Shown: piece after piece, positions 36,733 through 40,312 of the stretch | Numbering within the stretch: position 1 is the stretch's first letter | Layout of the letters: every line of letters starts with the position of its first letter | NCBI RefSeq assembly: GCF_003334315.1 | Contig: NZ_QOWR01000008.1 | DNA: 64,000 nt | From: Escherichia coli | GTDB lineage: Bacteria > Pseudomonadota > Gammaproteobacteria > Enterobacterales > Enterobacteriaceae | Strand: one strand, 5' to 3' | Notes under the pieces: model-generated | Seen by the model: the letters and a program-made list of their open reading frames with translations, nothing else | What the model was told of the DNA's origin: nothing | The model's database searches: none | Program-made: the position numbers and the translations under genes

Positions 36733-37653
36733 ATGCGTTTCCGCCAGTTGTTACCGCTTTTTGGCGCGCTGTTTGCGTTGTATATCATTTGGGGCTCAAC
36801 CTATTTTGTCATTCGGATTGGCGTGGAAAGCTGGCCTCCGTTAATGATGGCAGGCGTTCGATTCCTGGCAGCCGGTATTTTATTGATGGCATTTTTGCTA
36901 CTGCGCGGACACAAGCTCCCCCCGCTACGTCCGCTGCTCAATGCCGCGCTGATTGGCCTGTTATTGCTGGCTGTCGGTAATGGCATGGTGACGGTTGCCG
37001 AGCATCAAAATGTTCCTTCCGGCATCGCCGCCGTAGTGGTTGCAACCGTGCCCCTCTTTACCCTGTGCTTCAGCCGCCTGTTTGGCATTAAAACGCGCAA
37101 ACTGGAATGGGTGGGTATTGCCATTGGGCTTGCCGGAATCATCATGCTCAATAGCGGTGGAAATTTAAGCGGCAATCCGTGGGGCGCGATTCTGATTTTA
37201 ATCGGCTCGATTAGCTGGGCGTTTGGCTCGGTTTATGGCTCGCGCATTACCTTACCTGTAGGGATGATGGCGGGTGCGATTGAGATGCTGGCGGCAGGCG
37301 TGGTGTTAATGATCGCGTCGATGATTGCAGGTGAAAAACTGACGGCGCTCCCTTCCCTTTCAGGCTTCCTTGCGGTCGGCTATCTGGCGCTGTTTGGTTC
37401 GATTATCGCCATCAACGCTTATATGTATTTAATCCGTAATGTCAGTCCGGCTCTCGCCACCAGCTACGCCTACGTTAACCCGGTGGTCGCGGTCTTGCTG
37501 GGTACGGGACTGGGCGGAGAGACGCTGTCGAAGATTGAATGGCTGGCGCTCGGCGTAATTGTCTTCGCGGTGGTACTGGTCACGTTGGGAAAATATCTCT
37601 TCCCGGCAAAACCCGTAGTTGCGCCAGTTATGCAGGACGCATCAAGCGAGTAA
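36733..37653 (+). CDS. yedA: EamA/DMT-family exporter YedA
   Basis: 306-aa ORF with 10 predicted TM helices and two EamA repeats. Confidence 0.9.
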   Translation: MRFRQLLPLFGALFALYIIWGSTYFVIRIGVESWPPLMMAGVRFLAAGILLMAFLLLRGHKLPPLRPLLNAALIGLLLLAVGNGMVTVAEHQNVPSGIAAVVVATVPLFTLCFSRLFGIKTRKLEWVGIAIGLAGIIMLNSGGNLSGNPWGAILILIGSISWAFGSVYGSRITLPVGMMAGAIEMLAAGVVLMIASMIAGEKLTALPSLSGFLAVGYLALFGSIIAINAYMYLIRNVSPALATSYAYVNPVVAVLLGTGLGGETLSKIEWLALGVIVFAVVLVTLGKYLFPAKPVVAPVMQDASSE

Positions 37654-38112
37654 ATGAATCCCCTGCGTGTCGATCTGCGCGCTGGCACCTTCGCCGCAGA
37701 TCCACTCTTCCAGACGCTCGGTAAGCGCTTCATCCGTCAGCTTCTCGCGCCCACGTAATGCACACTCCCAGACAATCAGTACGCGCCAGCCGAGTTCCTG
37801 CAAACGACTGATATCGCGGCGATCGCGTTCAACATTTTTACCTATCTTCTCCAGCCAGAACTCGGTTCGAGTCGCAGGCACTTTAAACAGATAGCAGTGA
37901 TGATGATGCCAGAAGCAGCCATGGGTAAATATCACGCAGCGATATTCATCAACGACAAAATCCGGGCGACCGGGCAGACTGGCGTCCTGAACGCGAAACG
38001 CCAGGCCCTGCCCGGTTAACAGACTGGCGAGGCGCTTCTCAATCGCCGTATCACGCGTGGCAATCGCGCGCATATTTTTGCTGCGAGTGGCCTTATCGTG
38101 AACGTCGGCCAT
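37642..38112 (-). CDS. vsr: Very-short-patch repair endonuclease
   Basis: ORF track 210 aa; trimmed to [28 protein letters not shown]... (156 aa); start lies inside the 3' end of dcm in another frame. Confidence 0.9.
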
Positions 38113-39511
38113 GTTGTGCCTCTTGCTGACGCAACGCCACCGCCTGTTTGATTTTTGGCTCAAGCAGTTTTGCCACCGCGGCAAAGACCGGCACGACCAC
38201 CGAGTTACCGAACTGGCGATAGGCCTGAGTGTCCGAAACCGGAATGCGGAATTTCGCTTCTCCCGGCGCTTCAAAACCCATTAAGCGCGCGCATTCCCGA
38301 GGCGTTAACCGACGTGGACGATGTTGCTGATTCTGCGGATCGTCAAAGTCTTTCTCACCTTTGGCCATATCCCAGCCGCGATCGATTAAAATTTCCGCGC
38401 CATCTTTGTAATAACGCGCAGACAGCGTACGCGTGACGCTTTGCGGATTGTTCGGATAAACCATTCCATAACCGAAGCCGTTACCGCGCGCCTGATGTTT
38501 TTTCGCATAACGATAGAGGTACTTCCACAGCACCGGCGTCAGGATATATTTCGCCTCGACCATCGGGTCCAGCAGCTGCGCCAGCGTCACTCGCTGTGCA
38601 GGGAAACATTCGCTGATATCACGCAGAGTAAAATCGGCTTTCAGATTCAGATCGCGACGAAAACCCACCAGCACGATGCGTTCACGGTGCTGCGGCAGGA
38701 AATGTTTGCCGTCGATGATTTTCGGATCGTCCGGCCCGTTATCTTCTGCATCAGCCACGTCATAGCCCAGTTCGTCCAGCGTCTGAATGATGATGCGGAA
38801 CGTTTTACCCTGGTCGTGACTTTTCAGGTTTTTGACGTTTTCGAGCACAAACATCGCCGGACGACGCGCGTCGATAATGCGCACCACATCAAAGAACAGC
38901 GTGCCCTGGGTATCGCAGGCAAAACCGTGCGCCCGCCCGAGCGAGTTCTTTTTCGATACGCCAGCCAGCGAAAATGGCTGACAAGGGAAACCGGCCAGTA
39001 AAACATCGTGTTCAGGAATGTGTTGACGAATATGTTCCGCCGCCGCCTCATCACTCACGCCTTCTTTATGGCTGAGGGTGATGTCGCGGATATCTTCATT
39101 AAAATGATGCGTCGCCGGGTCGCAATAATGGTTGGCTTTATAAGTACGTACCGCATGTTTGTTCCATTCGCTGGTAAACACGCACTGTCCGCCAATCGAT
39201 TCAAAACCGCGACGGATGCCGCCAATTCCGGCAAATAGATCGATAAAGCGAAACGCATAATGCGGATGATGTGCCGGTGGTTTGGGTAATAACGTTTGCA
39301 GATGGGCGAACTCTTTCTCACTTAAACGGTGCCATGCCGAGTCATTCGCCAGCGCACGTTTTAAAATTGCCGCGCTCCAGTGATTCTCACCCACACCATT
39401 AAGCTGCGCCACCAGCGTTTTAACATCATATATTTGCAGCAGTTTCTCCAGCATTGCCTGTGCGGCATTCCCGGTGCTGTATGAATCGGTTACTGATATA
39501 TTTTCCTGCAT
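38093..39511 (-). CDS. dcm: DNA-cytosine C5 methyltransferase Dcm (CCWGG)
   Basis: 472-aa ORF with C5-MTase motifs ([10 protein letters not shown] motif I, GFPCQPFS motif IV, ENV motif VI). Confidence 0.93.
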
Positions 39512-39577
39512 AGATTTAACCGGCCATCTGAGATGGCCGACAGGTTAACATAATTACAGCCATTTAGGGCCACGCGC

Positions 39578-40273
39578 TCAGCCCGCGGGTGAAAACGCAT
39601 CTATCACCTTGTGATCGACACCTTCATTCTCCCCCGCCAGTTCGGCACTGAGCTTCGCCATAAACTCGACTAAAAAATGCGCGTTGTGCTGCGCCAGCTG
39701 CTTGCCTCTTGCGGTTTGCATGGTTTGCGGTAGCTTCAGCAACTTAGTCTGGAAATGATCCAGCGCGTAGCGTTTATCATCAAGCGGGCGATACTGTGCG
39801 AACGGATCTTCGCCATCAAACAGCGCCACGCCCAATGCCCCTGAAACGGCAAACACGCGCGCCAGGCCAATCGCCCCCAGGGCTTCCAGCCGATCCGCAT
39901 CCTGGACGATTTTAGCTTCCGTTGTTAAGGGGGCGATTTGCGCGCTGAAACTGTGAGCGGCAATGGCATGACAAACGGCCTCGATTTTCTCCGCCGGAAA
40001 TTGCACGAACTCTTCACGGAGCAGGCGACGCGTCTCTTCTGCCGCCAGGATTGAAGAACGCTGCCGTTGCGGATGATTTTTCGCCAGGCTCACAATATCG
40101 TGGAAATAACAGGCGGTTAAAATCACCAGCATATCGACGTCATCATCTGCCGCCAGCTTCTGTGCCGTAGCCCAGACGCGACGAAAATGACACACGTCAT
40201 GGGCCGCGTCCTGGTGCTGATGATGGTTTTTCAACCAGTTTTCGAACTCTGCCTGCCAGTGTTGTAAGTCCAT
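39578..40273 (-). CDS. yedJ: HD-domain phosphohydrolase YedJ
   Basis: Trimmed to [19 protein letters not shown]... (231 aa); HD motif ...CYFHDIV... Confidence 0.88.
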
Positions 40274-40312
40274 ACGCGCTCCGTTGCCAAAGAGTCGCAA
40301 CCTTAGCAGTTT

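Follow-up and report, generated by a model that had tools for sequence, protein, structure and literature searches.

Where does translation of vsr begin, and what is to be made of its beginning inside another gene? The gene for the very-short-patch repair endonuclease (Vsr) of Escherichia coli starts before the gene for a DNA cytosine-5 methyltransferase (Dcm) has come to its end, and it does so in a different reading frame. In the stretch of DNA considered here (64,000 nucleotides, called the window in what follows), the vsr frame is also open well upstream of the start given by RefSeq, and a purely mechanical reading of the sequence produces a protein of 210 amino acids. The features at issue are these:

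38093..39511, minus strand: dcm coding sequence, DNA cytosine-5 methyltransferase, 1419 nt, 472 amino acids, from ATG 39511 (open reading frame and RefSeq)
37642..38112, minus strand: vsr coding sequence, very-short-patch repair endonuclease, 471 nt, 156 amino acids (translation and RefSeq)
38093..38112, minus strand: out-of-frame overlap of dcm and vsr, ATGGCCGACGTTCACGATAA, 20 nt, with vsr in the +1 frame relative to dcm
38113..38274, minus strand: 54-codon upstream extension of the vsr frame, from TTG 38274, in the +1 frame of the 3' region of dcm

Read directly from the sequence, dcm stops at TAA (38095..38093) after a C-terminus of ...QHGRRSR, and vsr runs from ATG (38112..38110) to TGA (37644..37642). 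The original prediction placed the vsr ATG at 38112 on the minus strand, 20 nt into the 3' end of dcm, and both the sequence and RefSeq bear this out. It also called the arrangement a seven-codon out-of-frame overlap. The difference in frame (+1) stands, but the figure of seven holds only when partial codons are counted: on the vsr side, the overlap consists of six whole codons and 2 nt of codon seven, and on the dcm side, of 2 nt of His467, codons 468-472, and the stop. The length of 20 nt includes that stop codon; the A of the vsr ATG lies 17 nt ahead of the T of the dcm TAA. The TAA itself is formed out of the vsr codons Asp6-Lys7 (GAT AAG). A reading of the sequence gives the same open reading frames, the same overlap, and the same mechanical 210-residue frame, and the coordinates were therefore exact.

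The locus is the known E. coli dcm-vsr junction itself, no mere relative of it, and there is nothing new in it. The operon in E. coli K-12 was described by Sohail et al. (1990), Hennecke et al. (1991), and Dar & Bhagwat (1993). Compared with that operon, the window has a Vsr that is 100% identical, the same 20-nt +1 overlap, and the same neighbours, in the order yedJ-dcm-vsr-yedA; its Dcm differs, being 99.4% identical (about three amino-acid changes relative to a K-12-like genome), which is nothing substantial. The 2.4-kb locus is 100% identical to that of E. coli HS30-1, where RefSeq has dcm and vsr (WP_000786005.1) with the same 20-nt overlap. Annotated dcm-vsr loci had been named as the comparison to make, and the RefSeq coordinates match exactly in the 100%-identical genome and in the K-12-like one. 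It is also right that the overlap is well documented: the same 20 nt and a vsr of 471 nt are found in RefSeq, a passage of PMC4444293 states that the two genes overlap, and the overlap is named already in the title of Dar & Bhagwat (1993). Among complete E. coli genomes, 5359 of 5426 contain at least 80% of the 2.4-kb locus, and 3577 of 5333 carry the 110-nt junction with an identity of 99% or more. The exact 156-residue Vsr, named VSR_ECOLI, occurs on at least 1000 contigs in public protein sets.

Strain CM13, in which the locus is covered only in part, was considered as a natural deletion of dcm and set aside, as it is K-12-like elsewhere and has no recorded natural host or source. It is read as an engineered K-12 derivative that retains vsr and a short stub of the 3' end of dcm, and it therefore says nothing on natural variation. 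At the other end of the locus, vsr (minus) and yedA (plus, 36733..37653) converge, their 3' ends sharing 12 nt (37642..37653), as they do in RefSeq. Among relatives, the shared 3' segment ranges from 0 nt (Cedecea, Buttiauxella) up to about 23 nt (Kosakonia).

Both proteins are readily recognized. In a profile search, Dcm matches NCBIfam NF007772 with 950.4 bits (cut-off 710) over residues 1-469 and TIGR00675 with 350.7 bits (cut-off 100.65). Vsr matches TIGR00632 with 182.7 bits (cut-off 97.85), its residues 1-118 falling on profile positions 1-119. The Pfam match (PF03852, E = 3.9e-39) begins at residue 56 of the 210-residue frame, which is Ala2 of the 156-residue protein. That protein is 100% identical to chain A of the E. 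coli Vsr-DNA complex (PDB 1CW0_A) over all 155 residues, 2-156, the sequence of the chain beginning ADVHDK. Because of this identity, every functional residue of Vsr, whether catalytic or Zn-binding, must be present.

Evidence for the position of the start comes from comparison. A scan of species, with one genome taken from each, gave 80 Enterobacteriaceae loci whose Vsr is 76-97% identical to that of the window. In 57 of the 80, dcm overlaps vsr, and the junctions of these 57 loci align without gaps. Their overlaps measure 20 nt in 49 cases, 17 nt in four, 14 nt in two, and 35 nt in two; the dcm stop is always TAA, and vsr starts with ATG in 50 and with GTG in seven. From codon 2 of vsr onwards, variation is restricted to third positions of the vsr frame, the N-terminus of Vsr being conserved as protein; within the overlap, these third positions are the first positions of dcm. 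The change of regime at the start codon is evident from the mean entropy of alignment columns, given here for codon positions 1/2/3 and numbered from the A of the ATG:

-165..-31, dcm frame: 0.27/0.23/1.23
-30..-1, dcm frame: 0.99/0.77/1.42, relaxed at all three positions
+3..+19 (the overlap), vsr frame: 0.29/0.10/0.83
+20..+119, vsr frame: 0.38/0.29/1.27

At ATG 38112, across the 57 Enterobacteriaceae loci, purifying selection thus passes from the frame of dcm to that of vsr. What rises above chance is this switch of frame, together with the matches to a solved structure and to a family model, rather than the presence of an ATG as such. Nothing was found that contradicts either the start site or the overlap. 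The TRAINSPOTTER supplements, consulted as a source of start-site profiling or N-terminomics, do not name vsr or dcm. All told, we put at roughly 0.92 the probability that this is the canonical dcm-vsr junction, at which a Vsr of 156 residues initiates within the end of dcm at its own ATG, 38112, by means of its own Shine-Dalgarno-like AAGAGG. That element is placed as follows:

38119..38124, minus strand: Shine-Dalgarno-like AAGAGG of vsr, core GAGG at 38122..38119, separated from the ATG by 6 nt

The AAGAGG falls within the dcm codons Gln-Glu-Ala. Its GAG (columns 51-53 of the alignment) is conserved in 98/93/86% of the sequences, and the adjacent columns have entropies of 1.2-1.8 bits, making GAG the sole conserved island in the variable tail of Dcm, its last dozen or so codons. 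The tail ends in HGRRSR in some loci and in HGGRSR, NDGCAQ, or other sequences elsewhere, variants that are by-products of synonymous changes in vsr. To judge by the alignment, there is no constraint on the final twelve or so residues of Dcm. Since it is the vsr frame that dictates the sequence of the overlap, the Dcm tail may be seen as a passive read-through extension over the ribosome-binding site of vsr, and the overlap as a whole looks like an extension of dcm, by read-through, across the region in which vsr is initiated. The length of the overlap (14, 17, 20, or 35 nt) looks to be set by the choice of vsr codons, with GAT-AAG making the TAA.

The same start and the same Shine-Dalgarno sequence are present in the other 23 of the 80 relatives, where there is no overlap. 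The dcm stop lies 12 nt ahead of the vsr ATG in Cedecea colo (L076) and 35 nt ahead in one Buttiauxella (L069), and in four other Buttiauxella (L051, L054, L057, L063), dcm ends about 0.9-1 kb upstream of vsr. (One of these four, L051, carries a 172-residue open reading frame on the opposite strand between the two genes.) In the remaining 17 loci, vsr occupies the syntenic site with the same start and Shine-Dalgarno sequence and has no adjacent dcm:

Kosakonia: L060, L061, L065-L067, L079
Kosakonia sp. S29 and Phytobacter: L032, L037, L043, L047
Klebsiella: L033, L046, L081
Others: L025, L035, L036, L070

The group includes Klebsiella indica, K. oxytoca, K. spallanzanii, Pseudescherichia, and Enterobacter sp. 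kpr-6. Among the loci whose upstream open reading frames were listed, yedJ comes directly before vsr in Kosakonia, Phytobacter, K. indica, and Enterobacter sp. kpr-6. In five of the loci lacking dcm (L025, L032, L043, L046, L081), there is a TAA at +20 in what was the dcm frame, with no more than 9-15 open codons ahead of it; this TAA may be left over from a former dcm 3' end.

A purine-rich GAGG or GGAG stands at an equal distance from the start in the non-overlapping relatives and in those without dcm. Because relatives lacking the overlap, or dcm altogether, retain both the start and the Shine-Dalgarno sequence, the two appear to be self-contained, and since as many as 23 of the 80 relatives retain them without overlap, the vsr site is evidently competent for independent initiation. 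Kosakonia, Phytobacter, and the others resemble in this regard the bacteria with an orphan or unlinked vsr, for example Caulobacter with its VsrA (PMC12907096), where enzymes of the Vsr family function although no methylase gene overlaps theirs. The vsr of the window differs from these in being physically joined to dcm through the overlap.

How is the gene transcribed? In E. coli, dcm and vsr form one operon (PMC4924334, PMC12907096), and we regard co-transcription in the operon, with initiation at the Shine-Dalgarno sequence and ATG belonging to vsr, as well supported. A scan of 37300..39900 for the sigma-70 -35/-10 consensus, a crude one, turned up no promoter-like site and none inside dcm. 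The spacer between yedJ and dcm does contain two conserved elements:

39542..39550, minus strand: candidate extended -10, TGTTAACCT (TGnTAnnCT), about 30 nt before the dcm ATG, in the yedJ-dcm spacer
39512..39524, minus strand: conserved CCGGTTAAA block, just before the dcm ATG

Both TGnTAnnCT and CCGGTTAAA are conserved in Escherichia, Citrobacter, Salmonella, Enterobacter, Klebsiella, and Superficieibacter. Going by this conservation, they are candidates for a dcm-vsr promoter and leader that the consensus scan would have missed. The same spacer holds a perfect inverted repeat, CGGCCATCT-c-AGATGGCCG (39521..39539, minus), which reaches to within 9 nt of the dcm ATG and folds with z = -2.6; it is confined to Escherichia, being absent in Citrobacter, Salmonella, and Enterobacter. 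The ATG of dcm is not preceded by a Shine-Dalgarno-like run of purines. A search for known RNA families found none at the junction. The sole match, about 2.7 kb away, is the Hfq-binding small RNA rseX (40847..40936, plus; Rfam RF01401, 97.7 bits, full length), between a porin gene and drpB (yedR). That porin gene (41245..42459, plus), in the position of yedS and called 'ompC' by PGAP, is intact in the strain identical to the window, whereas at the same position the K-12-like genome has a frameshifted pseudogene with an internal stop.

There remains the matter of what, if anything, the overlap does. Every element of the original prediction that could be checked holds; its softer point is the statement that the arrangement couples the translation of Vsr to Dcm. 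According to a passage of PMC4444293 (citing Dar & Bhagwat 1993), dcm-6, a nonsense mutation at codon 45 of dcm, abolishes vsr activity as well. The phenotype is compatible with a dependence of Vsr synthesis on the translation of dcm, and it is compatible also with Rho polarity. Repair by the very-short-patch pathway takes place mainly in stationary phase, and because an excess of Vsr is mutagenic, as reported in the literature, the level of the protein needs control. The sequence of events may be pictured in this way. One transcript, starting upstream of dcm, would carry both genes. Vsr would initiate at its own ATG, 38112, served by the AAGAGG at 38124..38119, inside the last codons of dcm. 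Ribosomes finishing dcm would traverse this start and come to an end just past it (a spacing of -20 nt), and efficient synthesis of Vsr would require that ribosomes be translating dcm. Given the -20 spacing, the dependence could come about by local re-initiation, by transient opening of the mRNA, or by protection from Rho polarity.

The spacing itself is unusual. Efficient termination-reinitiation has been tied experimentally to stop-start distances of -8..+10 nt (PMC10666635), and -20 nt is outside that range. Within the 50 kb around the locus, the remaining annotated overlaps between co-directional genes measure 1, 4, or 8 nt. Coupled gene pairs with short overlaps (ATGA/TGATG, -4/-1/-8 nt; Huber et al. 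2019, 2023) are like dcm-vsr in being co-directional and within one operon, in having a downstream start near the upstream stop, and in having a Shine-Dalgarno sequence embedded in the upstream gene. They are unlike it in that the dcm-vsr spacing lies beyond their -8..+10 window and in that Dcm and Vsr are not subunits of a complex. The other likeness is to the coat and lysis genes of phages MS2 and fr (-50/-38 nt, +1), where the downstream gene likewise starts in another frame, tens of nucleotides before the upstream one ends, and where expression of lysis reportedly requires translation of the gene before it (PMC12548453). In the phages, however, the lysis start is kept silent by a defined inhibitory structure in the RNA, while the hairpin at the dcm-vsr junction, described below, has neither conservation nor overall covariation. 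The -20 nt of dcm-vsr thus falls between the common -1/-4/-8 pairs, with their established termination-reinitiation, and the phage overlaps at -38/-50.

The overlap might also be a by-product, nearly neutral to selection, of the loss or shift of the ancestral dcm stop codon, after which dcm would read through the ribosome-binding site of vsr; Vsr would be translated independently from its own Shine-Dalgarno sequence and ATG, and the phenotype of the dcm nonsense mutation would be due to Rho polarity. Much of what has been said above is congenial to this idea: the unconstrained tail of Dcm, whose sequence vsr dictates; the early dcm stops of Cedecea and Buttiauxella, 12 and 35 nt short of the vsr ATG; the 17 loci that have the same start and Shine-Dalgarno sequence with no adjacent dcm; and a spacing beyond the usual window for reinitiation. 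To these may be added the outcome of the folding analyses given below (no conserved structure sequestering the ribosome-binding site, and opening energies that are no different) and the position of the mutation, nonsense at codon 45 in a gene of 472 codons being the textbook situation for polarity (PMC12548453). Nonetheless, the 20-nt overlap is strongly conserved, being present in 49 of the 57 overlapping loci and in many genera. Also, in an explicit study of 1993, Dar and Bhagwat reportedly found that vsr has no promoter of its own, that no fusion product is made, and that translation of dcm is needed for Vsr to be synthesized efficiently. We regard the by-product explanation as unlikely.

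At the opposite extreme, the overlap might contain a dedicated device: a lineage-specific mRNA switch, formed by the 3' end of dcm together with the opening codons of vsr, that would gate translation of Vsr on the passage of ribosomes translating dcm. In such a switch, the Dcm codons Ala-Val-Ala would pair with the Vsr codons Lys7-Arg10 and so enclose the vsr Shine-Dalgarno sequence and ATG. The minimum-free-energy fold of the window junction, a single sequence, does form a hairpin that encloses both (z = -2.05). The only trace of the switch among relatives is a covariation, wobble with wobble, between Val GTN of dcm and Ala8 GCN of vsr (columns 35 and 84), in Escherichia and Citrobacter. This single covarying pair is noisy, and it is broken in 24 of the 57 sequences. 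Applied to all 57, RNAalifold predicted no pairs across the junction. The cells of the alignment that are paired in the hairpin number 68.7%, as against 68.4% in column shuffles, which is no excess, and opening -15..+13 costs 10.7 kcal/mol where the genes overlap, as against 10.0 where there is no overlap or no dcm (p = 0.23). A conserved hairpin sequestering the ribosome-binding site is therefore unsupported by RNAalifold, pair counts, or opening energies, though not disproved by them. A switch restricted to some lineages seems to us quite doubtful. If it were real, it could underlie the reported control of Vsr levels by growth phase.

We return to the preferred reading, in which Vsr begins at 38112, and to the starts that might compete with it. 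One lies downstream:

38071..38073, minus strand: internal in-frame ATG, Met14 of Vsr, a possible alternative start without support

Were Vsr, or a second isoform of it, to start at Met14 (38073), the product would have 143 residues and would be clear of the overlap with dcm. The ATG is invariant (57 of 57 sequences), public gene calls include a Vsr of 143 residues, on 21 contigs, truncation of the N-terminus leaves Vsr able to fold and to bind MutL (PMC2715241), and truncated forms have been crystallised (1VSR, 1ODG). However, codons 2-13 are conserved as protein, their variation being synonymous only. Because variation is confined to third positions, these codons must be translated, and because they are constrained at the level of protein, Met14 is excluded as the main start. 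Furthermore, the chain that begins at Ala2 has been crystallised in full length (1CW0), Vsr deprived of its N-terminal 14 residues is diminished in endonuclease and repair activity (PMC2715241), and the alignment to the Vsr family model begins at residue 1. No Shine-Dalgarno-like run was found before Met14 in the 57 aligned sequences. An origin of Vsr at Met14 is thus highly improbable. The 143-residue calls on the 21 contigs presumably come from gene callers avoiding the overlap, a small inconsistency of annotation that recurs.

The other competing start lies upstream. If the translated form were the 210-residue frame from TTG 38274, or began at some other upstream start in the vsr frame, one could point to the 56 open codons before the ATG in the window, likewise open in 33 of the 57 related loci, and to a TTG at the same position in 50 of 58 sequences. 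Read in the vsr frame, the columns of the extension from -165 to -31 have entropies of 0.23/1.23/0.27, with the peak at second codon positions. The extension varies most at its own second positions because it is the dcm frame that shows selection there: the signature is that of dcm. In 24 of the 57 overlapping loci, the extension is broken by in-frame stops, and in two subspecies of Salmonella enterica, arizonae and diarizonae, an in-frame TAG stands right before the vsr ATG. The 54 residues gave no family match in a profile search, no Pfam match ahead of residue 56, and no match in PDB; the 210-residue sequence was not found among about 15 billion public proteins; and the solved full-length protein begins at Ala2. 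The 54-codon extension is non-coding in the vsr frame. It is the variation at second positions, along with the in-frame stops, that fixes the start at 38112 and excludes the 210-residue form, to which we give next to no credence. The original prediction had held that the six-frame track over-extends vsr to 210 residues and that the true protein has 156, and on this point structure, family model, entropy, and in-frame stops are in accord with it. A similar over-extension is seen at yedJ, where the mechanical open reading frame (39578..40300, minus, from TTG 40300) has 240 residues as compared with 231 in RefSeq.

Finally, that Vsr is produced as a Dcm-Vsr fusion through +1 ribosomal frameshifting in the last 56 codons of dcm is scarcely to be believed: the vsr frame is open over 38280..38113 in this strain, and a +1 shift anywhere in that stretch would therefore yield a fusion, but 24 of 57 relatives do not have the stretch open, a conserved start codon (ATG or GTG) and a Shine-Dalgarno sequence belong to vsr itself, orphan vsr genes share the same start, and Vsr is a separate 18-kDa protein in structures and in biochemistry.

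The finding is of little weight in itself, because the overlap was already published in 1990-1993 and is reproduced by every annotation pipeline. Its practical value is that of a positive control, in which an out-of-frame start was placed to the base from raw sequence and a longer open reading frame was rejected. There are also small refinements. The vsr frame rules the overlap, the tail of Dcm appears to be unconstrained, and the length of the overlap is polymorphic by way of synonymous changes in vsr. Also, several enterobacterial genera retain vsr at the syntenic site without the overlap or without dcm. These non-overlapping and dcm-less genes bear on the deletion of dcm in strains meant to keep very-short-patch repair, and they bear as well on claims that the expression of Vsr requires the overlap.
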